Below are positions 4,167 to 31,548 of a stretch of DNA of 32,000 nt, in pieces. The DNA comes from Candidatus Iainarchaeum sp. GTDB taxonomy: Archaea > Iainarchaeota > Iainarchaeia > Iainarchaeales > VGJJ01. The stretch's first letter is position 1. Each line of letters begins with the position of its first letter. The DNA lies in contig JAUYHT010000006.1 of the NCBI GenBank assembly GCA_030688545.1, forward strand, positions 150,001 to 182,000, in the 5' to 3' direction. The translations under genes were made by a program, and so were the position numbers. A model generated the notes under the pieces. The model saw only the letters and a program-made list of their open reading frames with translations. It did no database searches and was not told where the DNA came from.

Positions 4167-7100
4167 TTATTTCACGATGCACATCGTTTCGGCTTCTTTC
4201 TCTTGCTTGGTGAGCGCGTTCATCACTTCTTTGGGGTTCCAGAAGAATTCAATTTTCGCCCCCGTGCTGCGCACGCACATGGCATCCTGCTTCACCAATC
4301 TTAATATTTCTTCCACGCTGCCCAACCGGTTGGAGGGGGTGTTGCCCGGCAGGACATTCGTCCCATTCAGGGGAATGGAGTTTCCTTTCACTAATTCTCC
4401 CGTGAATTCCATTCCGGTCTTCCAGGCCACACGCGTGATCTGCGATTGCGATTCCTGGGGGGTGTAGAAGATGGATTTGAAGAATGTGTTTCCCGCGTGG
4501 ATGGTGTTAGCGCACCATTCAAATCCGTAGGCGATGTTCTCCTGCGCCCCCGTGAGGGCACAATCCGCATTGATGGCGCTCATATCGAAGCGGGGGGAAT
4601 AATGATCGAGCATCGCATTGTCAGCAAAATCCCGGCAGTTGGGCCCCACCCCATACCAGGGGTTGCCTTGCGCTCCGATGTAGGATTGGCTGGTGTCATT
4701 CCCCACTCCCACGGAATAGAACCCATATACGTCGCTCTGCACGGCGTCATTGGCGATACGCATCATCACCGGAGTAGCGAAGCTGGGGCTCCAGGTGAGT
4801 TGCAGCTGTTGTGTCCCCTCCTGGGTTAGGCTCAATACCGTTCCCCGCTCAATGCTGTTGAGGATGGGATATGCATTCACCGTTTTTGTTGTTAATGTCG
4901 TGACGGGGGTGGAGTCGGCAATATCGATAGTGTCCACGCTCTCCGCGAGATCCATGTTCACCTTGACTTTTTCCCCGGTGTAGTTGACCCCATACCCCAC
5001 TCTTCCTTGACCATCATCCGTACCAATGAGTCCGTTGAAGGGCAAGTAATAGAAGGGACTAATTTCCTCCACGGTGCTGGTTTTCTCCACGAGCACATTA
5101 ATCACCGCATCCACTTCCCCATTCGTGAAGAAGGGCATCCCCACCTCATCAAATCGGATATCTAAAGTCACATCATAAATTCCGGGCCCGGGGAGCAGGT
5201 ATCCTTCCGGAGGAAGAACAGATCCTTCCCTCTGCACAATCCAATGATCCCGATTAGTGAAGAACCGACGCAACCCGGTTTGAGGATCCAAATAGTAGGT
5301 GGGAGCGTCGAAGAAGCTGACCGTGGTGGCATACCTATCGAAATCCTGGAAGAAGTCGGGAGAAAATCGATCCTGCATGAGGTGGGCACGGTAATTAACA
5401 AGTCCCAGCAAGGAGTCCTTGTCGAATCCCGGGGGATAGATGAGAGATTTTCCTTCGTCCTCACTAGCTTTGATGAACGCCCCCAAACGAAGAGTAGTGA
5501 ATGGCTCGCACGCCACCAATCCAGAATTAGCGCCGATGAAGAATTCAGTGGTGATGCTATCGGAGGCGGGCTGAGAATTGAAGCAGTTCTCGCATTCTTC
5601 AGGGGTGAGGATGGCGGTGACGGTGTACGCCCCTTCACTCAAATTGGATACCACAAATCCCACACTCACCTGGCTCCCCCCGGTGGGGACGAAAACGCTT
5701 TGAGTGCGGACAATAGGATTTGTCGTCGCGCCGATGGCCTTGTATTCAATGCGAAGTTGCGCGTTGTTGGGCGCGGGGGCCTTATTCTGGATGCCCACCA
5801 CGATATTCACATCCGCCCCCCCAATCTTGTCCACGGCAATGGAAGAAATTCCAATGTCCGCCGCCGGGATAATCTGGTTTTGGCTCCCGGACAGATCATC
5901 CTGCACCGGGCACGCGAAGGGGGCGTTCTGCGTGATGAATTGGCGCAGCGTTTGCACCTTCTGGAGAGTGGCGATGGAAAACTGCGTGGCATCGCAGTAG
6001 ATGTGAGTGGCATCCCCTTGCTTGTCCACGCGTCCCGCGTCGCAGGCGTCATAGGGGATGTCAGTGAAGTTCCATTTGAAGGCCACTTTTGGAACCGCCA
6101 AGTCCCCTGTTTTCCCTGTCTTCTCGGAGAAGGTGTCACAGCTCAGGGCGATGGGGGGCACCGCCGTAGCAAACCGGCTTTCGGGGGGAATGGCATTGTA
6201 TTGGAGGTGGAATTTGCTCTTGAATTCCGTTTCGTCCTGCGCTTTCAATGCGTCTTCGTCAGGCACCTTGTTCTTGTATTTCTCTCCCGAGGCGTATTCA
6301 AATCTTTCCCCGAAAACTAAAAGGGTGCGGAATATGGTTTGGTTGACGAATTGGGAGATGTTGGTGAACGTCAACGAATCGGCCTCCACTCGCCCTGGGG
6401 TTTCTTTCTCCAGGTTTATTTTGGGCACGAGAGCTACTCCACTTTTGGTAACCCGTATGTCCTTGTCCGCCACCTGCTCATTCGCCCCTTTCTCCCCCGC
6501 AATCATGCGCATCCCCTCTATTTCCACATCCTTTCCCAACACCGTAGTATTGAATTCCTTGTCTCCCGATCCAAAATAATCGATGAGGCTCACCGCAATC
6601 GTCACCACCCCAAAGGAGACCCAGGGGTTCTGCGTCCCCAATGACAATTTCCCGGTGATTTTCCCCAGCGCACTGCCGATGGCCGACTCCTGGATCTTTT
6701 CCCGGGTGGAGGGTCGCTGGTCGGGGTTAGACTGGAGGAGCAAAACCAACCCAGTGGAGGGCATGGTTTCGGGTCCCTTTGTCATCGCTTGAGCCCATAA
6801 TTCCCGAGCCCGATCGTCGGCCTCGGAGAGATTTTCGTCGAATCCCTTCAATGCCTTATCAAAGTCTTCCAACGCCCTCCGGGCTTTCGAGACATCCTTG
6901 GCATGGATCGCGTTCTCCAAGGTGACGTGGTGGGTTCCAGCCTCCAGATCAAATAGTAATGCATTTTCGAAAAACGTTTTGTAATCAACGGACGTTGGGT
7001 TATTCGGATTGAATGTCTCGGGCACCCGATCGCGCACGACGGAGAGGCGATGATCCATATCAAGTAGGGTATGCTCCTGCTGTCCCCAAATATATTCATA

Positions 7101-10100
7101 CGCGCTCATGTCCGCTTCGGATGGCGGAGAAGGAGAGGATGTAGTGTCGGATGGCGGTGGAGTAGGCGGCGCAGGGGTCTCAGTGGTGGCGGCGGCCGCG
7201 GGATCCTCGGGCACCTTGTCGCGCCCCATGTAATCCTTTCCATCCAACCAATTCGTTCCGGCTGTTCCCAGGAAGGCAATCACTCCCGCCGCTAGTCCTT
7301 TCTTGAGGCTGTCTAGGAATTTCTTCTCGATCACCACGCGCACTTTCACCTTTTGCTGCGTGCAATGGTTTTCCAGGCGGGCGGTGTCAAATCCATCATT
7401 GGGATTATTGGGGTCATCAAATACATCGAATTCATAGCGGTTCAATTGCAAACAGGCATTAGGGTCTCTAATGCGGGCGCGGATGGTCTTGGCGCGAATG
7501 GGAACCTTGTCCTCATTCCCCTCAAGATTAACGTAAATGGGATATTGTCCCGGGTCCAATTGGTTGTCATTCACCTCAATGGTCTTTTTGTCATCCCCTT
7601 GAAGGGTGAATTGCTTCAGCGTCACTTCCAAATCGGTCTGCAGCCCCACTTCCACGGGTGACCCGCATCCCTTGGTTTCGATGGTGAAGGAATCCTTTTC
7701 TCCGGGGCGTAAATCAAGGATTTCCTTATCGTATATGACGCAGTCCCGCAGGTTGACCACACTCAATGCCGCTACCACGGTGCTCGTGAGCAATTGGGGT
7801 TTCCCTTCCTGTGGGTTTTCTGCTTGGAGAACAATATCTACTTTCGCATTCCCCTTAACCCCTCCATACGGCGTGAAATCCAGCCGTGCGATGATACTTT
7901 CCTGGGGATTGATAGTGGGGAGGAAGGGAGAGAAATAACCCGTTCGTATTTTGGCCGCACCAATGGCAGTAGGATTATCCTGCTTGAACACACTCAGAAC
8001 TATTTCCCCTAATTCATTCCCGCTCCAGTCCGCGCGCGCCGCCAATTGGCGTAAGGAAATGGGGTTGCCTCCAATGCTGCAATTGTTCTGAATGCGAAAT
8101 TCATACGTCACCGTGTCGCCGTCACTGCTCGTCTCCCAATTCCGGGGCACCGCATTGAAGCAGGTGGGGTCATCCACCGGGGCACTAATCCCTATCCCAT
8201 ATCGTAGGGGCAGGTCGAACACCCATTCCGTGCCATAACTTTCCGCCCGCACCTCGAGGACCGCATCCAAATCCACGTGTTCCAATAGCTGGCGCGCCTC
8301 CGGGGTCAATACGCTTCGCAGGTTCACCGTTAACAGTCCATTGGCCGGGAGGACATTCCCCACATAAGGAAGCAAAGCGGATTCGATCTTCTCCTTATCC
8401 AAAAGTCCCTGCAAATTACCCTGTATTTTCATGCGGGTAATGCGAAGAGGCAAGCTCGTTTGGTTGGTGATGGTGAAGGGGGTCGTTTTTTCTATTTGCG
8501 TTTTGGCATTGATGGATATCCCCAGCTTCTCTGGATCAAAGGCCAGAATGGCTCCCGATATGGCCAATTCCTGGATGGCGGGATTGAACCCCGCTTTCTC
8601 CACCTTCAGGAAGATTTTCTTCCCGGGGGCCTGGGCGGGCAAAGTGATTCGTGCGTTCCCGGCCGCGTCCGTGAACGTTTTCCCTATCACAATACCCAAA
8701 TTGTTTTCCAATGTCACTAATGCTCCTTCCACTTCATCCCCGGTGGCGGAATTCTCAGCATGCACATCTAAGGTAATGGGTATGTTGCTCGGGTAGAAAG
8801 AAGGTGTTACATCCACACGCAGATCCTTGTCCCCCGTGATGTTCACCTGGATGCTCCGGCTGAACACGGATGAGAAATCAGAAACCAATTCGAAAGTGAT
8901 TAATGTGCTTCCTGCGAGGCGCGGGATGAATTGAATGGTGCCTCCCACCTTCTTCTGGGGGGTCAAATTTCCCACTCCCAAGGGAGCGCGGAACTGGTTA
9001 TCGTTCACAGTCCCGCTCAACCGGGCATTATCCGCATTGAAAATATCATACGTCGTGAAATCAATCCCTTCATTGGATGCGCCGATGCGCAGGTTGGCAT
9101 TCGTGTGGAATCCCGTACCATTGTTCAACAGGTTGAAGGTAAGATTGTATTCATTGAATATCTGGGCGTTGAATTGTTCCCCCGCGTCCTCGATGCGCTG
9201 ATCCTCAAGATCCAGGATGGAGGCGTCGAAGCAGAATTCTTTATCACATAAAGTGGTAACCCCCACCTGGTAAGTAGCCGATTTGGTGGCGGCGTACAAT
9301 TCTTCCACCGGATTGGCATCCGAAGGATCACGTAAGATATCTCCGTTCTCGGCGCGCACCTTATAGAACAGTTTGAGCGTCTCCTGTGGGGCCACATTAT
9401 CGCGCACGCTCAGGGTGACTTCGAATTCATAAATCCCCGGTTGAGGATCCCGATGCACCGCATTCACCCATTTAGCTGCGTCGAAGGTGATGCTTTCCCC
9501 ATCACTATTCAACCCATTCTGGGGATCCCACGAGCTCCCTTTTACGACGACGGTGCGGGGAAAAGCAATACGGGAAACATACCATTCGTCCTTCTCCACG
9601 ATATCCTTCTCCCCCGTACGCACATGAATATCCATGGTATCCAAATCATCCTGCTCTTCGGGAATGCTGATTCGAAATCGGGCTTGATACTCCCTTCCTT
9701 TTCCCACGCCCGTCACAATCTTTCCGCTCGAGTCAAACAGCCCCACTAATTCCATTTGGATGGAACCCCGAGGTTGAAGGGGGGGCATCACGACCTCAAA
9801 GCGTTGTGTGGTCTCCGGAAGAATGGGCTTCTGGATCGTAGTAACCGTGGCATAGTCTGTTTTCTGCACCACTAAAAACACGTCTTTGTCCGCCTTGCTG
9901 CGCTGGCCGGAGCGAGGCAGGATATACATCCCATTCGTGTCTGTCAAATCCGCTCCCAGGAGCTGGTTCTTGAACGCATTGAATACGGTTACCTTGGCAA
10001 ATGGAATGGGGTTCCCCCGATTGTCAACCACGCGGATGCTCACCGTGCCATCCGGAATTTCCATGATCATGGTTAATGTATGCGTGGCCGGATCGTCGAT

Positions 10101-11567
10101 GGCGAAGAAGTGCTCTCCGCTCAGCGCGGTTAACCCCGCTTTGTACGCGAAAGCGGTGTAGTTTCCTGTCACCACGTTCTTGAATTTAGCAACCCCATTG
10201 GCATCCGATACAATTTGTTCATAGGGGGCCAGGAACCCGGTGTCCGCATTATACAATATGACCGCCGCGTCCGCCACGGGAACATCATCCTGATCCTTCA
10301 ATTGGATTTGGAATACTGCTCCATTCATTCCATCAAATTTCTCGAGCCCCAGGACGAGGGTGCTGGTGGTGCTCCCCAGCACGCTCTGTTGGGCAGGGAT
10401 ATAATCTTCCTTGGAGGCGGATATGGTATAGGAGAGCGTTCGGTCCGGAATGGAGAGAACTGCTTCCCCCGACGCATTGGTTGTTGTCGTTTGAAGCACG
10501 GTGTTCCCCTGTTTGAGCTTTACGATGGCGTCCCGCAACACGGCTTGGCTCAGCTTGTCCTGCACGCGCACATTCAATGTGCCCGCGGCCTCTTTAGTAA
10601 CCGTAATCGTGACGGAAGCGGTGTCCCCGCTTCCCACGGATACGGTTTGTTGCGCACTCGTGTATATCCCGCGTGGGTCCGACACGACCATAGTATACGT
10701 CCCGGCCGCGACCCCCAATGAGACGCTTCCCCCCGCGTCCGTCAATCCCGCTTTGACCTCTATTCCATCGCGCTGCGCACTCACGTACAAGTCAGCCGCC
10801 GCCGCCCCCAATTGGTCTTTTACCGTGACGAAAATAGTGGCATCCGTAGTCGTGCGGGGAGATAGAATGATGTTCTGCACCTCCTTGGTGACGCGGAAGG
10901 ATTGGATGGTTTCATATCCTGTAACTTCCACCGTCACGATGAGTTCCCCGCAGTCCGCATTGGGCGTCACCGTGAAAACGCCTCCAATACCACTGATGGG
11001 AGAAGGAGGGGTTCCATACGAGGAAGAGCACGCGAATGTGAGCACGGCATCATTCAACACGGGTTGTCCCACGGTATTGACTAATTTGATGGTGCGGGAA
11101 AGAGATTGGCTTTGAAGAGGGGTGAGAGCGATGACTTGCGTCCGATTGTCTGAAGAAGGAGTGAAGCTGCTCCGCACGACTTCCCATTGAGTCGTGTCCA
11201 CTTCATAGTCGATTCGAGTCCCCCCCGCCACATTAAGAACAATTTCTCCCAGGGTATCGCTCACCAATGTTTCTGTTCTCCCCTGGTATGTAAATTGCAC
11301 CGGCACATTGGGCAGGGGCGCCGAATCTGGGTCAACCACTAAAAATGTCACGGCGACTTCCGGTCCGGCGAAAATCCCGGTGAAGGGAAGGAAGAGAAAA
11401 GCCACTCCCAGAAGGACAAGTAAGGATACGAGGGCGAAGCTGGGTATCTTGGTGTCGATGGGATCGATGATCTTGTACACCGGCACCCCATGCTTGTCCA
11501 GGAAGTCGAGCCCCGCGTACCATTTGTCTTCGAGTGCGAAATAGGTTTGTTTGATGACGTCGCCCAT
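4167..11567 (-). CDS. Giant signal-anchored surface protein, paralog G2 (2,466 aa from ATG 11567)
   Basis: Uninterrupted 7.4-kb ORF. The track start at 11603 is a GTG. I prefer ATG 11567 because the protein then begins MGDVIKQTYFALEDKWYAGLDFLDKHGVPVYKIIDPIDTKIPSF followed by the helix ALVSLLVLLGVAFLFLPF, like the other paralogs. The body has tandem beta-sandwich repeats (e.g. TVSIRVVDNRGNPIPFAKVTVFN...TDTNGMYILP), many N-x-S/T sequons, a P/T/S linker DPAAAATTETPAPPTPPPSDTTSSPSPPS, and the motif THIYCDATQF. Confidence 0.9.
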   Translation of the reverse strand: MGDVIKQTYFALEDKWYAGLDFLDKHGVPVYKIIDPIDTKIPSFALVSLLVLLGVAFLFLPFTGIFAGPEVAVTFLVVDPDSAPLPNVPVQFTYQGRTETLVSDTLGEIVLNVAGGTRIDYEVDTTQWEVVRSSFTPSSDNRTQVIALTPLQSQSLSRTIKLVNTVGQPVLNDAVLTFACSSSYGTPPSPISGIGGVFTVTPNADCGELIVTVEVTGYETIQSFRVTKEVQNIILSPRTTTDATIFVTVKDQLGAAAADLYVSAQRDGIEVKAGLTDAGGSVSLGVAAGTYTMVVSDPRGIYTSAQQTVSVGSGDTASVTITVTKEAAGTLNVRVQDKLSQAVLRDAIVKLKQGNTVLQTTTTNASGEAVLSIPDRTLSYTISASKEDYIPAQQSVLGSTTSTLVLGLEKFDGMNGAVFQIQLKDQDDVPVADAAVILYNADTGFLAPYEQIVSDANGVAKFKNVVTGNYTAFAYKAGLTALSGEHFFAIDDPATHTLTMIMEIPDGTVSIRVVDNRGNPIPFAKVTVFNAFKNQLLGADLTDTNGMYILPRSGQRSKADKDVFLVVQKTDYATVTTIQKPILPETTQRFEVVMPPLQPRGSIQMELVGLFDSSGKIVTGVGKGREYQARFRISIPEEQDDLDTMDIHVRTGEKDIVEKDEWYVSRIAFPRTVVVKGSSWDPQNGLNSDGESITFDAAKWVNAVHRDPQPGIYEFEVTLSVRDNVAPQETLKLFYKVRAENGDILRDPSDANPVEELYAATKSATYQVGVTTLCDKEFCFDASILDLEDQRIEDAGEQFNAQIFNEYNLTFNLLNNGTGFHTNANLRIGASNEGIDFTTYDIFNADNARLSGTVNDNQFRAPLGVGNLTPQKKVGGTIQFIPRLAGSTLITFELVSDFSSVFSRSIQVNITGDKDLRVDVTPSFYPSNIPITLDVHAENSATGDEVEGALVTLENNLGIVIGKTFTDAAGNARITLPAQAPGKKIFLKVEKAGFNPAIQELAISGAILAFDPEKLGISINAKTQIEKTTPFTITNQTSLPLRITRMKIQGNLQGLLDKEKIESALLPYVGNVLPANGLLTVNLRSVLTPEARQLLEHVDLDAVLEVRAESYGTEWVFDLPLRYGIGISAPVDDPTCFNAVPRNWETSSDGDTVTYEFRIQNNCSIGGNPISLRQLAARADWSGNELGEIVLSVFKQDNPTAIGAAKIRTGYFSPFLPTINPQESIIARLDFTPYGGVKGNAKVDIVLQAENPQEGKPQLLTSTVVAALSVVNLRDCVIYDKEILDLRPGEKDSFTIETKGCGSPVEVGLQTDLEVTLKQFTLQGDDKKTIEVNDNQLDPGQYPIYVNLEGNEDKVPIRAKTIRARIRDPNACLQLNRYEFDVFDDPNNPNDGFDTARLENHCTQQKVKVRVVIEKKFLDSLKKGLAAGVIAFLGTAGTNWLDGKDYMGRDKVPEDPAAAATTETPAPPTPPPSDTTSSPSPPSEADMSAYEYIWGQQEHTLLDMDHRLSVVRDRVPETFNPNNPTSVDYKTFFENALLFDLEAGTHHVTLENAIHAKDVSKARRALEDFDKALKGFDENLSEADDRARELWAQAMTKGPETMPSTGLVLLLQSNPDQRPSTREKIQESAIGSALGKITGKLSLGTQNPWVSFGVVTIAVSLIDYFGSGDKEFNTTVLGKDVEIEGMRMIAGEKGANEQVADKDIRVTKSGVALVPKINLEKETPGRVEADSLTFTNISQFVNQTIFRTLLVFGERFEYASGEKYKNKVPDEDALKAQDETEFKSKFHLQYNAIPPESRFATAVPPIALSCDTFSEKTGKTGDLAVPKVAFKWNFTDIPYDACDAGRVDKQGDATHIYCDATQFSIATLQKVQTLRQFITQNAPFACPVQDDLSGSQNQIIPAADIGISSIAVDKIGGADVNIVVGIQNKAPAPNNAQLRIEYKAIGATTNPIVRTQSVFVPTGGSQVSVGFVVSNLSEGAYTVTAILTPEECENCFNSQPASDSITTEFFIGANSGLVACEPFTTLRLGAFIKASEDEGKSLIYPPGFDKDSLLGLVNYRAHLMQDRFSPDFFQDFDRYATTVSFFDAPTYYLDPQTGLRRFFTNRDHWIVQREGSVLPPEGYLLPGPGIYDVTLDIRFDEVGMPFFTNGEVDAVINVLVEKTSTVEEISPFYYLPFNGLIGTDDGQGRVGYGVNYTGEKVKVNMDLAESVDTIDIADSTPVTTLTTKTVNAYPILNSIERGTVLSLTQEGTQQLQLTWSPSFATPVMMRIANDAVQSDVYGFYSVGVGNDTSQSYIGAQGNPWYGVGPNCRDFADNAMLDHYSPRFDMSAINADCALTGAQENIAYGFEWCANTIHAGNTFFKSIFYTPQESQSQITRVAWKTGMEFTGELVKGNSIPLNGTNVLPGNTPSNRLGSVEEILRLVKQDAMCVRSTGAKIEFFWNPKEVMNALTKQEKEAETMCIVK

Positions 11568-11622
11568 GCTCCCCGCTCCCCATTCCGGGATGGAAATATG
11601 CACTCAAAGAGCCTTTTCTGCG

Positions 11623-11630
11623 TATTTAAA
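11623..11630 (-). promoter_or_regulatory. TATA-like box upstream of G2 (minus-strand reading TTTAAATA)
   Basis: A TTTAAATA match about 60 nt upstream of ATG 11567. The predicted transcript start is near 11600, leaving a ~30-nt leader that contains GGGAGCGGGGAGC directly before the ATG. Confidence 0.5.
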
Positions 11631-11751
11631 GGTATGGCCGGAAGCGGCTTTGCACATAAACCTATCATTCCCAAAAAAGGAACCTCCAGCACGAAAGGGC
11701 CTTCGATTCGACATTTCAGCCTCTAATGTTTCCAGTCGTTTATTGCATAAG

Positions 11752-11759
11752 TTTATAAT
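11752..11759 (+). promoter_or_regulatory. TATA-like box (TTTATAAT) for the plus-strand ORF 11781..12323
   Basis: It is centred about 26 nt upstream of ATG 11781, the spacing expected for an archaeal leaderless transcript. It is divergent from the G2 promoter. Confidence 0.5.
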
Positions 11760-11780
11760 TTACTAAATCCCCGTCAGGGC

Positions 11781-12323
11781 ATGGGTATTTTGAAAAGGAA
11801 TGTTCGCCGGGTCGCACGACGAGAGGCACGTGGAAAAGAGACGAACGCACCGAAGCCAATTTGGCCGACAACAAAAATACAAAGGTTGATCGCTTGGCAC
11901 ACACGCTTGGACAATATGTGCGATGATTCGTTGTATGTGTTGGAGAAGTTCAAAGTCAGTATAGCACGAGTAGGGATGGAGTACACCTACGACAGAGAAC
12001 ACATTGAAGGACTCTGGGGAAAGGGCAAATACGTGGAAGGGAACAGGAAAATACCTATCGAATGGTCTACTGGATGGGTAGACGCAGATACCCCCTTTGG
12101 AAAAGCCCTTCGCGACACAAACAAGCTTGTAATGGGACTGAAACTACATCAAAACAAAAAAGGAACCCTAACCCCAGGGCAAGTCTTAGTAAACAAAGAA
12201 CGGTTGGATAAACTTATCCAGCAAATTCGCCGCGTGAAGACGCTTAATGCCACGCAATTACGGGAGTGCCTGCCGCGACCCCCAATGAGACGCTTCCCCC
12301 TGCGTCCGTCAATCCCGCTTTGA
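11781..12323 (+). CDS. Hypothetical protein (180 aa); the only plausible plus-strand gene; its last ~17 codons read antisense through the G2-like gene fragment
   Basis: ORF from the track, with a TATA-like box at the right spacing and no recognisable domain. From about 12269 onward (..RECLP/RPPMRRFPLRPSIPL) the frame runs over the antisense of the pseudogene fragment, so the C-terminus looks like an accident of a junction. Confidence 0.5.
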   Translation: MGILKRNVRRVARREARGKETNAPKPIWPTTKIQRLIAWHTRLDNMCDDSLYVLEKFKVSIARVGMEYTYDREHIEGLWGKGKYVEGNRKIPIEWSTGWVDADTPFGKALRDTNKLVMGLKLHQNKKGTLTPGQVLVNKERLDKLIQQIRRVKTLNATQLRECLPRPPMRRFPLRPSIPL

Positions 12324-12502
12324 CTTCAATCCCATCGCGCTGCGCGCTCACGTACAAGTCAGCCGCCGCCGCCCCCAATTGGTCTTTTACCGTGACAAAA
12401 ATAGTGGCATCCTCGGGGGTGCGGGGGGGACAGGATGATATTCTGCACCTCTTTGGTAACGCGGAAGGAACTGCAACAGTAATCCCAAAGTCCCCTGCCA
12501 CA
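12269..12502 (-). pseudogene. Decayed fragment of a G2-like giant gene (matches G2 residues about 225-300, G2 coordinates about 10704..10940)
   Basis: Direct nucleotide alignment done by hand. 12269..12415 matches 10704..10850 at 138/147 nt and encodes the identical DATIFVTVKDQLGAAAADLYVSAQRDGIEVKAGLTDAGGSVSLGVAAGT. 12432..12473 encodes the identical SFRVTKEVQNIILS. Between the two blocks a 1-nt insertion in a C-run shifts the frame. Similarity fades with indels toward 12502 and stops abruptly at 12268/12269. Confidence 0.85.
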
Positions 12503-12601
12503 ACCAATGTATGCTAAACCAAGAATAATTCAACAAGGAACCAATATTTATGAAGTATCCAATGCACGAAAAGGAGGCTTGCCGCTCATAAACGGGACTT
12601 T

Positions 12602-13135
12602 TTAGGAACCTTTTGGGGAAAAGCCGCTGGATGTAGGCAGTAAAATCTCATCTATGATTGCGTGACACCTGTTCTTGAATTGAATCAATATTCTCATTAA
12701 TCTGTGCCGCACTATTTCGGCTTCCTGCCCTTTATTGGCTAATACTTCCGCCGAAAATGTCATATCGCGGATATTCATATCTACTTTCCCAATCTCAATC
12801 AATGTGTTTGCAGCCAATCGACCTATTCGCTTCTGGCTTTTTAGATCCATATTTTTTATTATAATTTTGTATTCAGGATTGGCGAGTAGATGAAGAAATG
12901 AATGGAAATCCGGTTTGAAGAATGTGTGGATGAAATACTTATTTTGTGCCTTGACTTCGTCTCTACGTGGGAGGCCCTCATATCGTTTCAATGTATGATA
13001 ATGATCTTCCAGATGAAGCTTTCGTTTTTTAGGCACTTGGAATGATTTGAGACGGTGCCGTAATTTTGGGGAAATGCCTCCTGGCAGCGCTCGTCTCTTT
13101 TTACCTTGAAAATGGGTTCTCGACTGACTAGGCAT
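12602..13135 (-). CDS. Hypothetical basic protein (177 aa) in the AT-rich island
   Basis: ORF from the track with ATG at 13135. The K/R-rich N-terminus reads MPSQSRTHFQGKKRRALPGGISPKLRHRLKSFQVPKKRK. No domain recognised. A TATA-like box sits at the leaderless spacing. Confidence 0.55.
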   Translation of the reverse strand: MPSQSRTHFQGKKRRALPGGISPKLRHRLKSFQVPKKRKLHLEDHYHTLKRYEGLPRRDEVKAQNKYFIHTFFKPDFHSFLHLLANPEYKIIIKNMDLKSQKRIGRLAANTLIEIGKVDMNIRDMTFSAEVLANKGQEAEIVRHRLMRILIQFKNRCHAIIDEILLPTSSGFSPKGS

Positions 13136-13156
13136 ATAAAAATGCGATTATTTTCA

Positions 13157-13168
13157 TTATATATAAAA
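13157..13168 (-). promoter_or_regulatory. TATA-like box (minus-strand reading TTTTATATATAA) for ORF 12602..13135
   Basis: Centred about 27 nt upstream of ATG 13135. Confidence 0.5.
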
Positions 13169-13323
13169 CAAATGGAAAGCCCACCGCCGTAATAGGATGG
13201 CAGTGGTGGAATAACCGGCTGTGTCCTTAAATTAGACCTTTTTTAGGCCTGCCTCTACGAAGTAGGCTTGGTTCCATAAAGGGTCTTCGATACCCCCCTC
13301 GAAATACTGATGGATGAGGCAGG

Positions 13324-13719
13324 TTATGAGAAAAATCTAATTTCCTGAATGCACACATCACCGCAAGTAATATCTCCTTCATAAATAATGACTCCAATAG
13401 CAGTCAATAAAACAATAATTCCAATTCCAACCAAAAATAGTAATAAAACTCTTCGAGTACTGGACTTTTCTTTTATGATATTTTGTATAGTAGGTTGTAC
13501 CATAAAGAAAACGGTCAGTATGATTGTGAGGATAGTGTCGATGTACATTCGATTGGTAATAAGTAATAGTCCATTTCTTGATGAAACATGCCATGTTCCT
13601 AACCATGGAAGAAGTTGTCGAACAAACAGTACAAAAAAATTTGGTTCGAAAAATAAATATGCGAGTAAAAGTATTGGGGGAATAAAAGGTATGACAGACC
13701 ATGCCAATTTTTTCATCAT
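13324..13719 (-). CDS. Small hydrophobic membrane protein (131 aa, about 4 helices) in the AT-rich island
   Basis: ORF from the track. Hydrophobic stretches are WSVIPFIPPILLLAYLFF, NFFVLFVRQLLPWLG, IDTILTIILTVFFMV and VLLLFLVGIGIIVLLTAIGVII. Codon usage is very AT-rich, unlike the giants. Confidence 0.55.
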   Translation of the reverse strand: MMKKLAWSVIPFIPPILLLAYLFFEPNFFVLFVRQLLPWLGTWHVSSRNGLLLITNRMYIDTILTIILTVFFMVQPTIQNIIKEKSSTRRVLLLFLVGIGIIVLLTAIGVIIYEGDITCGDVCIQEIRFFS

Positions 13720-13934
13720 GAACCCTTAATCCTTCCGTGCGATTTCCAGCGAAAGCGCTTTACAGAATTTAAACTGAGTGGTTTACCGGGTTCTGTTGAA
13801 AATCTTTAATCCCCTTAAAAACCTGAATTTATAGAGCCAGACCTACTTTGTGGAATGAAACCTAATTTACGGACAAAGACGGAGTAACCCACTACCTTAA
13901 TTCGACTCATTATTTAAATCTAACAAAATTTCCC

Positions 13935-14402
13935 TCACACCCCTAATCCCGCCAGAGGGAGGATGCGGCGCAGGGTTTCCATATCAGGGAATGCGTGCCA
14001 GAGCGCCCACACGAGCAGGCCGAATGCTAACACATACACTACATCATACCCGGCCGCGATGGCATAGTTGGGCAGCCGGACCTGACCATTTTCATAGATG
14101 TCTTCCAGGGCAAACCCTCCCAAAGTTTTTCCAAATAGGATGGCGGCCACAAGAGAAACGCCCAACAGGTTGCCCGAGATGGGAAAAACACTCACTAAAG
14201 GAGAGAGGAGCATCCCCAATAGGAAGAGGAACAACCACCCCATGATTCCAAAGAACAGGGTTCCCAGCCCCGCGCTCACCAAAATAAGTCCCAAAATCGC
14301 CAGCAGGGTGGGAGGGTCAAGGGAATAGGTAACCACTTGCGTCCCCAAAAAAACTCCCATCGTCCAGGCGAGGAAGAGGATGAGGAGGGCATGGTAGGTC
14401 AT
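13935..14402 (-). CDS. Polytopic membrane protein (155 aa, about 5 helices) immediately downstream of G3
   Basis: The track ORF 13935..14477 overlaps the G3 stop. The internal ATG 14402 gives MTYHALLILFLAWTMGVFLGTQVV... It starts 25 nt after the G3 stop codon, which begins at 14428. GC content is similar to the giants. Confidence 0.7.
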   Translation of the reverse strand: MTYHALLILFLAWTMGVFLGTQVVTYSLDPPTLLAILGLILVSAGLGTLFFGIMGWLFLFLLGMLLSPLVSVFPISGNLLGVSLVAAILFGKTLGGFALEDIYENGQVRLPNYAIAAGYDVVYVLAFGLLVWALWHAFPDMETLRRILPLAGLGV

Positions 14403-14427
14403 ACGCGCAATAATTCTGGGAGAGTTA

Positions 14428-17400
14428 TCAGGTGGCCGTGCACTGGAGGGCCGCGGGCACCACGTCTTCGGAGGCAAGATCCCAGATCACCGTGAACACA
14501 TCCTTGGAGATGTCTCCGCAGGCTTGTCCGGTTTGGATGCGGGCGAGAATATCTTGCAACGATTGGGGCGCTGCGGCCGGGCCGCGAAGATCCATAAATT
14601 GGACCTGGGTGCTGGGGCTGGCAGGAGGCAATCCCACGGTGTTTGAAATAGTCTTCACATCCGCCGTCCCGGTGGTGCAGGCGGGGAGCAACCGATAATT
14701 TTTCTCCGGTGGAATAAAGGCCATCCCCGTGTACACATATTCGTTCCCCGCCAGATCCCCGACTAATGAAAAGTCGCCCGGTCGCCCGGTGTTGCAGGTG
14801 GGACCCGTGGTCGATGATACGGGTATTCCATTCGGGTTGGCGCAATCAATCCACCGGATGCTTGCTCCATTGATGGCCACTCCCGGGGGAATAGCGGCTT
14901 GCCCGGATTCCACAATGGTATATTGCAACGCAGGCTGGGAGGCGGGGCTGTCCATCCGCAGACGAATGGGGGCAGGAGTAGAAGGAGCATACTGGAAGCT
15001 ATACCCCCCACCCCTCCCTTCCAGTCGGAAGAACGTGGGCACACCCTGCGCGGCCACGAGATCCCCGATGGCTGAAATAGTCTCATAGGTTTGGAGCGTG
15101 AGCAAGGGCACTCCCGTCGAAGGAATGCTGCTCGTGAACCCCACACTATCGTCCCGATAGGGCATTCCCGCGCTCACGGCGGGCAGGCTTAACCCAACCC
15201 CATAGCCGCTGCGTACCCTCCCAACGCCCGTTTTCCCATTGAAGGGAATGCGGAAGAAGGGGTTGTCCGCGTAGGCGGTGTTTCCGCTGTTTAGTTGCGT
15301 GTCAATTTCCCCCAGAGAAAGATAGGATACCGCATCTCGTTTAATTCGCACGGCCAGGGATTTCACGCCATCCGAATCATTTTCCCATGTGGCCACGAAG
15401 CTAGCGGGATACAACCCTGCCTCCGGGACAGGAGGGGAAATAAGCATGCGTTGAATAATATCCAAATTGGTTAGCATTTGGTTGTTGAAGGCCGCCGGGT
15501 AGTCATACCCTTCCCCGCTCACGAACGCCAAATCCGAGAGGAGGAACTGGGAGAAAGCATCCTGCATCATGTACACGTTCATATCCACGAACCTCCCGCG
15601 CAAAGAATCGATGTCCGCGTACGCCGTGTCCTGGAATGTCAATCCCCCTTTCTGTCGCGCATGGGACAGCACATACCCTAAGCGGGCAGCATCCCAAGCC
15701 TCTGCTTCCGTGTCCGTGGGAACGAGCATCCCCACTTGCACGGATTCGACGGCATCATAGATGGCCCGATATACTCCGGGGGTGAACTGATGACTGTCCC
15801 CGGGTTGAGTGAGGGAGGCGAGTGCCCAGCAGTCTGTCCCGCAGAGGGTTGGATTTATTTTGTTGGACTCATCGAAGAAATGCCTGAATTCGGAGAACAG
15901 CCATACGTATTTCTTCTCCCCATTTGGGAAAGTCACTTCATCGGCCCCCATTCCTTTGATTCCAGTCGCGACAAGCCTGCTCACCTTATCCGCGTCCAGC
16001 ACGATCACCAATTGCTCCGCCAATTTATTCCCAGCCGCGTTGTTCTGTATTTCCTCGAACTTCTGTTTGACGAACGCCACGTAAGAAGTGTAATCGGCCG
16101 GCACTTCATTCAAATTGGGGGCGTTGCTCAGGGCGGTAAACACATTGTCAATGAGCAATTTGGCAGATTGGGAGGACGTGGTTTCTTTAACCACCCCATC
16201 CCCAGCCGAATTAACGAAGAAGGAGCGCGTGGGCTTCCCAGTCGTCTGGTCATCCGTGACGGTAATTTGATCATGAATAGCAAGCACGAAATTCTGGCTC
16301 GTGTAATCCTTATCAGCATCGCTGAACAATCCCGAGGCCTGGTTGGCTTTCACGAAGGTATCGAATTCCTTCAGACGTTTGGAGGTGAATATCATGAATT
16401 GCGTGGCATCGCAAAAGTATTGCGTGCAGTCCGGACTCCCCTCATAGGTCCAATCCCACGTGAGCCGGTCGAACCCATACTTGGAAACGAATCCGGGACC
16501 TTTCTCATAACCTGTTTCCGTGCAGGCCTGGGGGGTGAATATGGCCGTACTTGGTTTTCCCACGGGTTTGATGACAATGCGCACGGGCAGGGACACTTTC
16601 TGCGTTCCCGGGTTGGCAATGGTTCGCGTGACCTCCAAAGTTAGAATACCCTCGATGACCGCTTCCTGCGTCAGGTTAAGTGGACGATTGATCTGGACCT
16701 GGAGGTCGTGTTTTCCGGACACCGAAAAGATGGCTTGCACGCTCGGGTTTTGCCGGCTCGTGAGGATAGTAGGGGTGACACTCCGGATGTAATCCACTTG
16801 TCCGCAGAATTCTTTTCCGTCAATGATCCCGGTCTTCAGCACTGCATTGGGGGCTTTCGTGGTATGGGTGAGGATGGTCTGCCCCTGGAATTCCGCGTCC
16901 CCAAATTCGAGGGCGGCCGCCCCCGTGTCGGTGCCAATGGCACGAAAACGTAATGCGTCCTCATTGACGCATTCTGAATAGTTGGTGATGCTTTCACTTC
17001 CCCCCTGCAGCAAGGGGTTGATAGCTGAGGCCAGGTTGAAGAGGTTTTCGAATATCACGGGGAAGGGTTTCTGCTGCGGCCCCCCATATGGGTCCAAGTA
17101 TTTCACCGAGATGGTGCCATAGGATTCGACCCGGTAATAATTAAGTTCCGCGAAGAATTTGAGGTCCAGCACCTGCTTGGGAAAGCTCCCTCCCTGGTCG
17201 AAGGGGGAGAGTTGATGTTGATACGTAGTGAGGTCGGGGAATATCTGGAACTCCAATACCTGCACGGTGTCGCGTCCGTCTCCTTGCGTGGAGATGCCTA
17301 TGATTTGGATGTCCTGCACCAGGGAATTGGGTTGTTGGCTCACTCCTTGCTTGGGGTCCAATGTGGTATTTCCTTTGGCATCCTTGAGGGAAGCAATGGT

Positions 17401-20400
17401 CACCGTGTCCGCGCTGGGCACCAATCGTACACCCTCGTCGTAGCAATTGTTGTACACCTTTCCCTTCACCGGCTTCTGGATGAAATCATTAAAACGGTAT
17501 TTGGTGGTGTTCAGGGAGATGCAATCCTGGTTGACCTCCGTGGGGGATCTCACGAGGACGCTTATGAACGCCACTTCCGTGGAAGGATCCGTACTCCCTT
17601 GCGCGCGGGCATTTACGTTCACCCCATATTTGCCTATGCGGTAACCGGGTTGCACGAACACCCGCTGCGTTTGCGTGGGTTTCAGTGAAAAGGTTCCCTG
17701 CGAGGACTGGAGATTGGGATCCACATCCAATACTATTTGTACTTCGGATTGGCACGCATTCTCTATGCGAAATTCGGTTCCCGCGCACCCGAATTGTCCT
17801 CCGGCCCCCGGGGCATAATTGTATCGGTCGAAATTGGGGTTGGCAAACGGCCCTTGAGCCCCGGCGAAGTAGTTGGCGGATTGCGGCGTGAACTGGGCCG
17901 AATAGGGACCCATGTTCCCAAACCCATCCACCCCTCCCGGTCCATACGCCCCAGGGTAGGTTCCCGTGAAGAATGGACTCCCATACGTGATATTAGAGGG
18001 AATGGCACTGGTTCCACTGGGATTAGATGTCTGGTTGAGCGTCTGGAACCCGGGGTTGAAATAGGGTACGCCCGTGGGTCGGTAGACTTGATTGTAATAA
18101 TTGCTCATCTGACTAAAACCAGTGTTGAGGGCGCAGGTTTCTATTTCAAGGATGGGAGGAGCGTTGACCCGCACGCATTGCGTCAAATCATTGACGACGA
18201 GGTTCATGGTCACCGTCTTTTCCAGGTGATCCGGAAACCCGGTTCCCGTGAGGTTGGTGGCGCGGAATACGATTTGGGGTTGCGCAACTCCTGAAAGGAT
18301 GTCTCCCGGGGCGAATGTAATGGTCACAATGGCCTCCCCATTGGCGGGGATGGCATCCAAAACGGTTTCATAAGCGGCCCCCAGGGTTTTGGTTTCCTGA
18401 GTCGTGGCACCGGTGAACGTCCCCAGGGAGTTCCCCGCGAGCTGTTTTACTTTCACCGCGAGGTCCGTGAGACGCACGGGAACCCCTTTCACCGTGCACG
18501 TGTTCTTGATCTCAAAGGCCTGCTGTTTCCTTTCCTTGGTTCCCACGAACGCATCCCAGGTCACGGGCTGTACGAGCAAACAATCCTCCACATCCACTTC
18601 CCCCCCGAATCCCAACTTGAGAGTGAGGGGAAGGGCATTGGTGAAGACTTTTCCCGAGGCTTCGTTTTCCACGATCACGAGGAGACTCCCTTTGAATGTT
18701 TTGGCGGCCAATAATTTCCTTCCTTTATCGGTGAGGTCGAGCGTGAATTGGATATTGGCATCCCCATTCACCGGCAATGTTTCCCCGATGACTTCATGGG
18801 TGATGAGGTCGAACCGCACGAGTTCCTCAAAATCCCCCGAGAGTTTGACATCTCGTATCACGAGGGGAATGCTGGCCAAATTCAGGGCGCGCACCTCTTT
18901 GGCCTTGCGCCCCGTGCCATTGATGATAAGCGTTTCATTCAATTGGGCCGGCTGGAACAGGAGGATGTCGGCTCCCACGGTGATGGATATGGTCACTGGC
19001 TTATACCCAGGTTTGGAAAGGGTAATGTCCAATTTGTCATTGACATTGGGTTCATTCAGTTCGAATGGAAAAATCCCCTCCCCATCCGTGAACCCGCTCG
19101 CGTGGAGCACGCTATTCTTCAGCACCTGCACATTCACATTTTCCAATGGAATAGCGGTTTCCCCCAGGGGTTTAGTTACGCGCACCAGGATTTGGTTGGA
19201 TAGCAAAGGCAGTATGGCCTTGGGCACGATTTCCACTGTGAATACTTCGGCCGCGTCCACCCGGATAACCACATCCCTCGAAAACAATTCCTTTTTGTTG
19301 CTGACCATCTTGAGCGAGACGATGGATGTTCCTTCCTTGCTCGCGTCCACGTTCACGAATCCGAATACGACATTGTTTTGTTGGATGATGCCCACAGGTA
19401 TCTCCGCTTTGTTCCCAGCTACGTTTCCCGTGCGCTTGGCCCCCACCGCATTAGTCACCTCGAATGCTCCTAAAGAGGCGCTCCCCGAGCTGGATTGGAT
19501 CACCAAAGACGTGTCTTGCAACACTGCCTCCGAGGTACTATGAATGGTGAATAACATTTTGTGTCGTGTCCCAATATCCAATGTGGTGTCCCCCAGAAGA
19601 GGGGTTTGCAACCCATTGGCAATATCCTCCATCACGAGGGCGGCGCAGAATTCCTGGCTGCACACGCTCGCGCTCGCTCCCACACTGTAGGAAGCCAAAT
19701 TAGTATTGGCATACAACCCCTGCTTCTGTTGGGTGGATTCGGCTCCCGCCAATACCGCGTCCACTGGAAATCGTACGAATGATCCCGTTTTCCCCCACCC
19801 GCGGTAAAACAATGGCAAATCCGTCCCTTGGGCCACGCTGTCCTTCACCCGCACATCCACTTCCACGATAGTAATGCCTTCCCGCGGGTTCTCGAAAACG
19901 ATGTTGCCCCATTTCGCCTCTCCCGAGGTGAGGTGCTGGGCATCAATCCCCAATCCGGTGGGCGGGGTATATGTGGTGCCCCGTTGGATGTTAGTGGTGG
20001 GGGCACGGATATTAACCAGGGTCCAGGCATCATTCTCCATAGGATTCGTCTGCCCATCTACGGCGTTCCCTGTGCGCACGTGCATCCCCGTCTCATTGAA
20101 AATAGCATTGCGCGGGATGAAGAGGCCGAGTTGAATGGTATACGTTTGCCCCGGCGCCAATCCCGCGTCCGCGAGAAGAGGTTGGGTATTCACCCAGGTG
20201 CCGAGCACCCGCACTTCGAGGCGCTGGATATCCTTTACCAATTGCGCCGCCACCATTTGGGTTATTCCTTTCTTGAGGGCAATGGGTAGGGTTGTATAGG
20301 GAAGATGCTCCCCCTCCGTGATCACGAAATACACCTGCTTGTCGGCCCGTAATGTCACTTCTTTAGTCCCATCCACGTCGAGGGAAATCTCATTCCCCTC

Positions 20401-22005
20401 ATTCTGGTGGGTGCGCGCATCAATAGGTTGGAGTCGGGCGCCCGCGAGGGGTTGTCCATCGAAACCAGTGACTTTAACAAGGATATTTCCCGTCCCAATC
20501 GTGAGGCGGATGGTGCTCTCGACATTCTCCCGGGCCCGCACCTCGAATACGTCCGATCGTATCTGGTCGGAAAACCCGGGTTTGTAGGCGCTCGCGAAAT
20601 AACTTCCTTCTTCTAATGAGAGGAATAACACCGTGCCCCCTGCTCCCGTGGTCTTACTACTTCCAACCGTCGCTCCATTCCCTGATCGTTTCAATGAAAC
20701 AATGGCGTTCTCCACGGGCTTCCCCAATTCGTCCACGACTCGAATAGTAACCCCTTGGGAATTCTGCAAGGTGGCTTTCGCCACCCCTATCTGGGTGTAG
20801 CCGGCCTCCGACACGGTGACTGGAACATTGGTCTTGAGATACGCCGGATGATCGATTCCCACTGAAAGATTTTGGGTGGTTGACACCGCGAAGGTTACTT
20901 GTCCTCCCTCATTGGTCTGCTTCTGCGTCACTACTTGATTAGCCCGGCTCAGGATGACGATGGCTCCCGACACCGGGCTTAATGTTGATTCATCCACTAT
21001 TTGGAGGCGCACATCCCCAATGGTTTTGGGCTTCATGGTTAAGGTGATGGTGGCCGGGGCGTTTCCCATAACTTGCGTGGGAGCGCTTTCTATGGGCGCG
21101 TACAGATCGTCATACGCCCCCACCACATACGTGTCTTCTACCAGCCCCCTGAATTCAGCAAACCCCGTGGGATCGGTGAATTGGGTGTAGAGGACATCCC
21201 CAAAGGGATTGAGAATATTGATCGTGGCGCCCGCAATAGGTTGCGTCTGTTCATTGATGACGGTGACGCGAATAATCCCATTTCCTTGCACGGGGGGCAC
21301 CACGTATACGGCAGGCTGGTTGCTTTCGAGATCAATGATCCCTGACTCTAATCGCACCCTATCGTCCAAAGATATAGCGGTGAGCGTGCCGCAGGATCCG
21401 GGCACGGATAATGAAATGAGGCCCGTGTTACTCGTTCGGGTCTCCGAGTAAGTGGCGTCCCCGGAGCAGGCGAATTGCAGGGTCACAGATTCCAAATAGG
21501 ATTCACTGGAGTTGGCGCGATATACCTGGAGGGCAATGGAAGTAATTACATTGGTCGGACTCCCAATGAGGCTGATACGAGGAGTGCTGCTGCTAACGAT
21601 AAGCGTGCGCTCTTGAAATGTATGGGTGTCCGAAGTGGCTCGAACAGTAATCGTTTGTCCCCCCGCCAACCCCGAAAATGAAGCGTTCCCCGTCGCGTCC
21701 GTGAGGAGGGTGCGCGAAACATTATCCCCCTGGATCTGGATGGAAACATTGGCCAACGGATTTTGGGTGTCGTCCTGCGCCAACACGTTGAGAGTGTTTC
21801 CCACGAGAATACTCCCACCCCCCAGAGCGGTGAACAACCCCACCAGCACCAAAAATGTCACCAATACCGCAAGAGGAAACGTAGGGATGTTCTGGGCCTC
21901 AATCTTATCTATTATACTATACACCGGCAACCCATGCTTATCCATCCAGTCGAGCAACGCGTAATATTTGTCCTCCCCCGCCGTGTATAGCCCCTTCAGC
22001 CCCAT
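14428..22005 (-). CDS. Giant signal-anchored surface protein, paralog G3 (2,525 aa)
   Basis: Uninterrupted 7.6-kb ORF. ATG 22005 gives MGLKGLYTAGEDKYYALLDWMDKHGLPVYSIIDKIEAQNIPTFPLAVLVTFLVLVGLFTAL. Beta-sandwich repeats are present (e.g. VTIRVVDELGKPVENAIVSLKRSGNGATVGSSKTTGAGGTVLFLSLEEGSYFASAYKPGFSD). There is a G/Y/F/N/P/Q-rich low-complexity segment and the motif TQYFCDATQF. The C-terminal half is collinear with G2. Confidence 0.9.
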   Translation of the reverse strand: MGLKGLYTAGEDKYYALLDWMDKHGLPVYSIIDKIEAQNIPTFPLAVLVTFLVLVGLFTALGGGSILVGNTLNVLAQDDTQNPLANVSIQIQGDNVSRTLLTDATGNASFSGLAGGQTITVRATSDTHTFQERTLIVSSSTPRISLIGSPTNVITSIALQVYRANSSESYLESVTLQFACSGDATYSETRTSNTGLISLSVPGSCGTLTAISLDDRVRLESGIIDLESNQPAVYVVPPVQGNGIIRVTVINEQTQPIAGATINILNPFGDVLYTQFTDPTGFAEFRGLVEDTYVVGAYDDLYAPIESAPTQVMGNAPATITLTMKPKTIGDVRLQIVDESTLSPVSGAIVILSRANQVVTQKQTNEGGQVTFAVSTTQNLSVGIDHPAYLKTNVPVTVSEAGYTQIGVAKATLQNSQGVTIRVVDELGKPVENAIVSLKRSGNGATVGSSKTTGAGGTVLFLSLEEGSYFASAYKPGFSDQIRSDVFEVRARENVESTIRLTIGTGNILVKVTGFDGQPLAGARLQPIDARTHQNEGNEISLDVDGTKEVTLRADKQVYFVITEGEHLPYTTLPIALKKGITQMVAAQLVKDIQRLEVRVLGTWVNTQPLLADAGLAPGQTYTIQLGLFIPRNAIFNETGMHVRTGNAVDGQTNPMENDAWTLVNIRAPTTNIQRGTTYTPPTGLGIDAQHLTSGEAKWGNIVFENPREGITIVEVDVRVKDSVAQGTDLPLFYRGWGKTGSFVRFPVDAVLAGAESTQQKQGLYANTNLASYSVGASASVCSQEFCAALVMEDIANGLQTPLLGDTTLDIGTRHKMLFTIHSTSEAVLQDTSLVIQSSSGSASLGAFEVTNAVGAKRTGNVAGNKAEIPVGIIQQNNVVFGFVNVDASKEGTSIVSLKMVSNKKELFSRDVVIRVDAAEVFTVEIVPKAILPLLSNQILVRVTKPLGETAIPLENVNVQVLKNSVLHASGFTDGEGIFPFELNEPNVNDKLDITLSKPGYKPVTISITVGADILLFQPAQLNETLIINGTGRKAKEVRALNLASIPLVIRDVKLSGDFEELVRFDLITHEVIGETLPVNGDANIQFTLDLTDKGRKLLAAKTFKGSLLVIVENEASGKVFTNALPLTLKLGFGGEVDVEDCLLVQPVTWDAFVGTKERKQQAFEIKNTCTVKGVPVRLTDLAVKVKQLAGNSLGTFTGATTQETKTLGAAYETVLDAIPANGEAIVTITFAPGDILSGVAQPQIVFRATNLTGTGFPDHLEKTVTMNLVVNDLTQCVRVNAPPILEIETCALNTGFSQMSNYYNQVYRPTGVPYFNPGFQTLNQTSNPSGTSAIPSNITYGSPFFTGTYPGAYGPGGVDGFGNMGPYSAQFTPQSANYFAGAQGPFANPNFDRYNYAPGAGGQFGCAGTEFRIENACQSEVQIVLDVDPNLQSSQGTFSLKPTQTQRVFVQPGYRIGKYGVNVNARAQGSTDPSTEVAFISVLVRSPTEVNQDCISLNTTKYRFNDFIQKPVKGKVYNNCYDEGVRLVPSADTVTIASLKDAKGNTTLDPKQGVSQQPNSLVQDIQIIGISTQGDGRDTVQVLEFQIFPDLTTYQHQLSPFDQGGSFPKQVLDLKFFAELNYYRVESYGTISVKYLDPYGGPQQKPFPVIFENLFNLASAINPLLQGGSESITNYSECVNEDALRFRAIGTDTGAAALEFGDAEFQGQTILTHTTKAPNAVLKTGIIDGKEFCGQVDYIRSVTPTILTSRQNPSVQAIFSVSGKHDLQVQINRPLNLTQEAVIEGILTLEVTRTIANPGTQKVSLPVRIVIKPVGKPSTAIFTPQACTETGYEKGPGFVSKYGFDRLTWDWTYEGSPDCTQYFCDATQFMIFTSKRLKEFDTFVKANQASGLFSDADKDYTSQNFVLAIHDQITVTDDQTTGKPTRSFFVNSAGDGVVKETTSSQSAKLLIDNVFTALSNAPNLNEVPADYTSYVAFVKQKFEEIQNNAAGNKLAEQLVIVLDADKVSRLVATGIKGMGADEVTFPNGEKKYVWLFSEFRHFFDESNKINPTLCGTDCWALASLTQPGDSHQFTPGVYRAIYDAVESVQVGMLVPTDTEAEAWDAARLGYVLSHARQKGGLTFQDTAYADIDSLRGRFVDMNVYMMQDAFSQFLLSDLAFVSGEGYDYPAAFNNQMLTNLDIIQRMLISPPVPEAGLYPASFVATWENDSDGVKSLAVRIKRDAVSYLSLGEIDTQLNSGNTAYADNPFFRIPFNGKTGVGRVRSGYGVGLSLPAVSAGMPYRDDSVGFTSSIPSTGVPLLTLQTYETISAIGDLVAAQGVPTFFRLEGRGGGYSFQYAPSTPAPIRLRMDSPASQPALQYTIVESGQAAIPPGVAINGASIRWIDCANPNGIPVSSTTGPTCNTGRPGDFSLVGDLAGNEYVYTGMAFIPPEKNYRLLPACTTGTADVKTISNTVGLPPASPSTQVQFMDLRGPAAAPQSLQDILARIQTGQACGDISKDVFTVIWDLASEDVVPAALQCTAT

Positions 22006-22027
22006 GCTCCAGGAATCCGTTTACCCC

Positions 22028-22037
22028 TTTTTATATG
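22028..22037 (-). promoter_or_regulatory. TATA-like box upstream of G3 (minus-strand reading CATATAAAAA)
   Basis: Centred about 28 nt upstream of ATG 22005 in the 85-nt gap after the pilin-like gene, a leaderless-type spacing. TTCCGGCCGGGAATCC lies just upstream on the minus strand. Confidence 0.55.
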
Positions 22038-22090
22038 TTGGGGGATTCCCGGCCGGAAACACCCATTCCGTGGCTAATTAGGGAAATCCT

Positions 22091-23842: not shown

Positions 23843-23891
23843 GGTATCCCCAACCCCCTTTCCTCTTCCTTCCAATTGAAACCATCGATTA

Positions 23892-31520: not shown

Positions 31521-31548
31521 AGCAATCCCACCCATCAAACCACGGGAA

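Follow-up and report, generated by a model that had tools for sequence, protein, structure and literature searches.

A probable non-functional relic of a second G2-type gene copy upstream of a giant archaeal gene

Upstream of the giant gene G2, the DNA analysed here (a stretch of 32,000 nt, hereafter the window) contains a short block of G2-like sequence that is likely to be a remnant (the relic) of a second, no longer functional G2-type copy, left behind by turnover or recombination at the 5' end of G2. The block was the only sizeable off-diagonal match in a self-BLASTN of the window, in which minus-strand positions 12266-12469 align with positions 10699-10901, inside G2 (184 identities over 204 nt, 90.2%, one gap, E ~1e-75). 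Apart from the relic and its G2 counterpart, the 32 kb contain no DNA repeat of any size except a 37-nt pair (31556/31654). The coordinates of the features are collected in Table 1. Codons of the relic and of G2 are numbered from the GTG start of G2, on the minus strand and in the G2 frame.

Table 1. Features of the window, and the Logan unitigs that cover part of it
Feature	Coordinates	Strand	Remarks
Relic	12266..12469	-	204 nt of a G2-type gene, equivalent to G2 codons 235-302; start codon absent, frameshifted
G2 homologous block	10699..10901	-	Codons 235-302: linker and first half of a CarboxypepD_reg-like domain
Two-codon replacement patch	12412..12417	-	ACT ACG (TT) in G2, CCC GAG (PE) in the relic; inter-domain linker
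C7 run with one extra C	12423..12429	-	Shifts the 5' block out of the frame of the 3' block; same run in Logan unitig L002
50-nt exact repeat	12347..12396 = G2 10780-10829	.	Short-k assemblies break there; possible deletion substrate (1,567-bp interval)
180-aa ORFan	11781..12323	+	GC3 0.50; last 19 codons and stop are antisense of the relic
Low-GC accessory DNA	12470..13934	-	Bounds the 5' side of the relic; GC 0.32-0.43, GC3 0.26-0.40
177-aa ORFan	12602-13135	-	GC3 0.40
131-aa ORF, membrane-like	13324-13719	-	GC3 0.26
Promoter-like motif ACCTTTAAATACGC	11620..11633	-	Upstream of G2; native upstream sequence ends, variable slot begins
G1	6-2858	-	Truncated at the window edge; 2379 aa in full on Logan contig L008
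G2	4167-11603	-	GTG start; gene caller puts the start at ATG 11567
G3	14428-22005	-	
G4	23892-31538	-	
Unitig L002	from beyond 23135 down to 12367		100% identity
Unitig L001	10800-12376		100% identity
Unitig L008	10809 down past the window start		100% identity

The relic and the giant genes around it

In small-genome archaea, contacts at the cell surface are believed to be mediated by giant membrane-anchored proteins rich in CarboxypepD_reg domains. Each of the four giant genes of the window encodes an N-terminal membrane anchor and, after it, CarboxypepD_reg-like and other Ig-like domains (in G2, Pfam gives CarboxypepD_reg matches). For the 420 N-terminal residues of G2, the nearest database relatives share 52% identity; they are partial proteins that carry the label 'archaeon' and come from assemblies of Hainich groundwater filtered at 0.1 µm. 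The PDB contained no match to the G2 sequence. Together with the length of the source contig (445,965 nt), these features suggest a DPANN-type archaeon. Smaller genes accompany the giant ones: a 180-aa membrane protein (13935-14477) directly follows G3, a 619-aa protein (22091-23950) follows G4 and a 353-aa low-GC ORF lies between G1 and G2. None of the three has a family match. The first two are involved in ORF overlaps of 50-60 nt, and since the gene caller gives shorter versions of them (155 instead of 180 aa and 583 instead of 619 aa), these overlaps may be start-codon artefacts. The 37-nt direct repeat (31556-31592 and 31654-31690, 95% identical) is GC-rich, has internal dyad symmetry and is situated immediately before the G4 start (31538), with a TTTATAAA box after the proximal copy. 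A role of this repeat in regulator binding, or an association with a promoter, is possible.

The protein encoded by the relic is 97% identical to G2 residues 235-302. The block spans a linker and approximately the first half of a CarboxypepD_reg-like domain, and its limits are not those of a domain. A codon-by-codon table splits it in two parts separated by the additional C. The 5' block (14 codons, S235-S248) encodes the same protein as G2 with six synonymous differences, and the 3' block (P249-G301) does so with nine, except for one pair of residues, TT in G2 and PE in the relic. Counted by codon position, the differences between relic and G2 number 2, 1 and 16 at the first, second and third positions. 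The hand alignment and the list of codon pairs given in the preliminary description are reproduced by this table (15 synonymous differences), in which the one-nucleotide insertion in the C-run and the TT-versus-PE patch that it reported can also be seen. The linker that holds this patch is also variable among the orthologs P0001 and P0002, so the patch may have arisen under selection too.

The GC content of the relic (0.60) equals that of the G2 block, compared with 0.32-0.47 in the DNA around it. In a base-by-base comparison the edges are abrupt, at 12265/12266 and 12469/12470. Past the 5' edge (12469), anchored and local alignments with G2 were no better than those of shuffled sequences (p ~0.5-0.8), and the flank past the 3' edge is unrelated to G2 (p ~0.16 against shuffles). 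The 3' boundary had previously been described as sharp and as lying within the tail of a plus-strand ORF, both of which hold, but it had been placed at 12268/12269, 3 nt away from the position found here. The deletion of ~21 nt and the similarity decaying as far as ~12502 that had been proposed on the other side do not stand, as the 5' flank scores like shuffles and the relic measures 204 nt instead of 234.

Only 68 of the 2478 G2 codons are represented in the relic, which is truncated at both ends, carries the additional C between its blocks and has no in-frame ATG. With so few codons, no start and a frameshift, the relic, judged from its reading frames, cannot make a G2-like product. An 87-aa ORF with a TTG start (12244-12507) covers it and is absent from the records as a called gene. 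Significant homology to part of an intact gene is thus joined to the inability to encode the product of that gene, as in gene remnants. The relic is an ordinary representative of this well known kind of feature and not a new kind of element.

Assembly support for the relic

Several circumstances could suggest that the relic is an assembly artefact, in which reads from the G2 allele of a co-occurring strain were stitched between unrelated sequences. The assembly is of metagenomic origin, the block and G2 have in common a 50-nt exact repeat that breaks short-k assemblies, and the interval is absent from a second MAG. A chimeric assembly joining strain variants had indeed been put forward as an alternative in the preliminary description. 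Nevertheless, three unitigs (k = 31) of the Logan assembly of run SRR13727534, recovered by exact-protein look-ups, are all 100% identical to the window, and both junctions of the relic lie more than 100 nt inside two of them, L001 and L002, which are unbranched. The unitigs break only at the 50-nt repeat: at each of the four unitig ends (L001, L002, L008) the overlap with the shared 50-mer is exactly 30 nt, the length that k = 31 predicts, and the unitig graph, L002-R-L001-R-L008, has one linear solution, which is the assembled order. Moreover, the sequence outside the junctions is unlike G2, so there is no shared k-mer able to switch strains there. An artefact of this kind is accordingly quite unlikely, with the qualification that the reads of SRR13727534 may be the same as those behind the window, in which case the support is not independent.

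The second MAG, GCA_034375545.1, belongs to the same organism. Its contigs cover positions 4474-11503, 13837-15354 and 21386-26826 at 99.96-100% identity and it yielded none over 11504-13836, so the relic is seen in one read set only. One of these contigs (L005) differs from window positions 4474-11503 at 3 of 7,030 nt (99.96%), including a single replacement (N99K), and carries the same G2 allele as the window. In this MAG, G3 is distributed over four contigs, which indicates low coverage and not structural variation. A literature search on the run and assembly accessions matched no paper.

Selection on the source copy and its identity

The substitution pattern indicates what kind of sequence the relic derives from. 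In the Nei-Gojobori comparison of relic and G2, Sd = 16 and Nd = 3, giving dS = 0.40, dN = 0.020 and dN/dS ~0.05, an excess of synonymous over non-synonymous divergence of the kind that characterizes functional alleles. When 15 substitutions were placed at random, keeping the observed transition/transversion mix, at most 12 of the 15 were synonymous and not one of 100,000 trials gave an all-silent outcome. The neutral time elapsed since the inactivation of the relic, computed for zero to two replacement events, does not exceed 0.02-0.04 substitutions per site, or 5-11% of the pairwise dS. The earlier suggestion that the source of the fragment had diverged under strong purifying selection is thus supported by a formal estimate on the aligned block. 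At the level of the codons compared, the excess of silent changes places nearly all of the divergence between relic and G2 in a time when both were parts of working genes, which makes the source of the relic a working gene for nearly all of this time. The source copy was presumably translated and selected until recently.

One alternative is that a piece of the present G2 was recently duplicated nearby and then decayed neutrally as a pseudogene. The direct orientation of the two copies and the distance of only 1.57 kb between the relic and its parent block would agree with such an origin. Yet neutral decay would be expected to produce ~70% replacements, whereas all 15 of the isolated changes are silent, and the bound on neutral time leaves little of the divergence to be accumulated after inactivation. 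This scenario is very improbable; it survives only if a diverged allele later replaced G2, in which case it becomes a form of the explanation favored here, the loss of a second G2-type copy.

The preliminary description proposed as source either a fifth paralog or an allele from a related strain. Since the mutual protein identity of G1-G4 is 22-31% and that of the relic to G2 is 97%, the first of these terms is misleading, and what fits is a G2-type allele, or a recent duplicate: a DNA divergence of ~10%, almost confined to silent sites, is what an allele from a related strain or a long-lived recent duplicate would show. On these identities, the source of the relic is a G2-type allele or a very recent duplicate of G2 and not another member of the family. 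A search for the donor itself turned up no intact second G2-type gene. Protein-guided scans of GTDB genomes and JGI metagenomes with the 68-aa peptide found nothing above 52% identity, the best matches, at 52%, coming from Hainich groundwater archaeon MAGs. A search of a collection of 5.8 billion proteins also found nothing above 52%, but it missed G2's own 90% cluster as well and is a weak negative: G2 and its cluster mate P0007, 99.96% identical to it, were both missed by this word-indexed search, though an exact look-up finds P0007 in the collection, so its negatives for close relatives are unreliable.

It could also be asked whether the repeat has a function, either as the template/variable pair of a diversity-generating retroelement (DGR) or as a silent donor cassette for gene conversion of the giant protein. 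A ~200-nt, ~90% identical copy near a surface-protein gene in a probable DPANN-type archaeon speaks for such a system, and DGR repeats do resemble this pair in length, in identity and in their association with a surface-protein gene. However, all four bases are found among the mismatches (A makes up 5 of the 19 in either copy), no reverse transcriptase domain was found by Pfam in any non-giant ORF of the window, and the block corresponds to an N-terminal position in the gene, the wrong one for a DGR. There is, besides, one copy only, and its differences are silent, so conversion would leave the protein unchanged except at TT/PE. A functional repeat is barely credible on these grounds. The retroelement was rejected for its missing adenine-specific mismatches and reverse transcriptase. 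Silent cassettes serve antigenic variation, for instance in Neisseria pilS and Borrelia vls, and share with the relic that they are promoterless partial copies of a surface-protein gene near the expression locus. This candidate was rejected as well: the relic is single and, with 15 silent differences and one two-residue patch, holds essentially no alternative protein information.

Origin of the relic in a variable slot

The relic is located in a low-GC variable slot of ~2.3 kb that separates the G2 promoter from the conserved gene of the membrane protein following G3 (13935-14477). In minus-strand order, this slot contains the 131-aa ORF, the 177-aa ORF and the relic, after which comes the plus-strand 180-aa ORF, whose last 19 codons enclose the 3' edge of the relic. 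GC3 is 0.61-0.65 in the core genes compared with 0.26-0.40 in the low-GC DNA. The 180-aa ORFan retrieved only itself from a protein-collection search, and its AlphaFold2 model is poor (pLDDT 54) and unfit for a fold search. An exhaustive HMMER search of 1.84 billion representatives with the 177-aa ORF likewise matched only itself. The neighbouring ORFs had no credible match in Pfam, PHROGs, NCBIfam or PADLOC, and no tRNA or Rfam family was found. Both the 180-aa (plus strand) and the 177-aa (minus strand) ORFans have a TTTATA-type box ~25 nt before the ATG (11752-11759, where it reads TTTATAAT, and ~13158-13165, respectively), and these TATA-like boxes would correspond to archaeal leaderless promoters. 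One of the silent differences of the relic (TTC to TTT) creates a minus-strand T5 run (ATTTTTG, 12398-12402) ~200 nt past the end of the 177-aa ORF; this run might serve as an archaeal oligo-T terminator, but is perhaps a coincidence.

On the G2 side, the slot is delimited by the promoter-like motif ACCTTTA(A/T)ATACGC, which is found upstream of G2 (11620-11633), of G1 (2905-2918) and of the G2 orthologs on two Hainich groundwater contigs, L003 (~1105-1118) and L004. It lies ~50-60 nt before the ATG, and conservation stops just beyond it. In L003, whose G2 ortholog is 52% identical, the slot lies between a homolog of the membrane-protein gene and the G2 ortholog, and the place of the ORFans and relic is taken (375-1009) by two low-GC ORFs, of 166 aa and 55 aa, that are opposed and overlap, a pair that was judged to be a PIN-like toxin-antitoxin module from its sequence. 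The cargo thus differs and the slot is variable between relatives. As far as can be read from this exchange of content, the slot upstream of G2 is a hotspot of accessory genes.

The overlap between the 180-aa ORFan and the relic raises the possibility of antisense regulation: read-through from the ORFan across the relic would produce an RNA complementary to G2 codons 235-302, with 50 nt of perfect pairing, that could modulate G2 in trans. The ORFan has its TATA-like box and terminates within the relic, and the first plus-strand T5 run comes only at ~12599-12603, beyond the relic, which may be read in favor of such a transcript. Nevertheless, the complementarity has not been specially kept, as 10% of the positions have drifted and the length of the longest identical run (50 nt, 16 codons) is not significant (p = 0.08), whether taken as a sign of selected complementarity or of gene conversion. 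Such an antisense role is extremely improbable.

How the second G2-type copy came to be reduced to a relic may be considered from its position. The relic and its counterpart in G2 are direct repeats 1,567 bp apart, the relic being upstream, with the ORFan, the G2 promoter and G2 codons 1-234 between them. The preliminary description held that the second copy was destroyed by insertion of the AT-rich island and of the plus-strand gene. This is insufficient: no further G2-like sequence was found in the window past either the AT-rich DNA or the plus-strand ORF, and without any such remnant insertion alone cannot explain the loss of ~7.2 kb. Either these ~7.2 kb were deleted or the relic arrived as a short segment, so that the more general claim of the same description, that the fragment records turnover or recombination, can be retained with the addition that deletion or recombination is required.

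Several routes may lead to this arrangement. In general terms, a second G2-type copy would have been cut down by illegitimate recombination or deletion tied to the turnover of accessory DNA in the slot. One possibility is that recombination brought a module made up of the promoter and 5' end from a related strain into a G2-type gene, pushing its former codons 235-302 upstream. Such a module swap would require a homologous exchange combined with an illegitimate join, or else a single crossover by way of a circular intermediate, and a further event would account for the low-GC DNA on the other side of the relic. Another possibility is the decay of a tandem duplicate, which would give the same end state as the module swap. 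Finally, accessory DNA coming from a related strain might have carried the relic along by hitch-hiking. Neither the low-GC DNA nor the ORFan was found to be flanked by terminal or target-site repeats. If the block is indeed a relic, and on a rough estimate, recombination with a related strain is the foremost of these routes while taking slightly less than half of the likelihood, the decayed tandem duplicate is a plausible but lesser one, and hitch-hiking seems rather unlikely, a small part of the likelihood being assigned to none of them.

The arrangement has parallels in known systems. Homology-facilitated illegitimate recombination and Campbell-type single-crossover integration are known from bacterial genetics to leave direct repeats of the homologous segment. 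The two direct copies bracketing the ORFan, the promoter and the 5' end of the gene are in line with this, as is the upstream copy with its two sharp ends. In contrast with these processes, no donor molecule, integrase or circular form is observed here, and the DNA upstream of the relic is unrelated and low in GC, so at least one further event would be needed. Gene remnants beside prokaryotic surface-protein genes or in hotspot slots offer the other parallel: they too are short, promoterless, frameshifted pieces of a neighbouring gene in a low-GC accessory setting whose content differs between relatives. The difference from usual gene remnants is that the relic has diverged by ~10% almost only at silent sites, which suggests that it came from a separately evolving functional allele and not from the decay of a local copy.

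To our knowledge, little is known about the turnover of giant surface-protein genes in small-genome archaea. The relic provides a clean, dated case, in which a G2-type allele that was ~10% diverged and under selection was cut to 204 nt within the last 5-11% of the divergence. The only effect evident today is passive: the ORFan takes its last 19 codons and its stop from the relic, and the 50-nt repeat is created. This perfect direct repeat breaks short-k assemblies, a practical hazard for those who assemble and bin such genomes at short k, and it could mediate the deletion of the 5' end of G2 (1,567 bp). The relic further points to the slot upstream of G2 as a site of accessory-DNA exchange. 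A more tentative interpretation, possible but doubtful, is that it consists of the displaced old codons 235-302 and is a fossil of inter-strain recombination that remodels host-contact proteins, with read-through of the ORFan as antisense RNA against G2 as a further possibility. If the module swap is true, it would be a case of inter-strain recombination remodelling the host-contact proteins of a small-genome archaeon.
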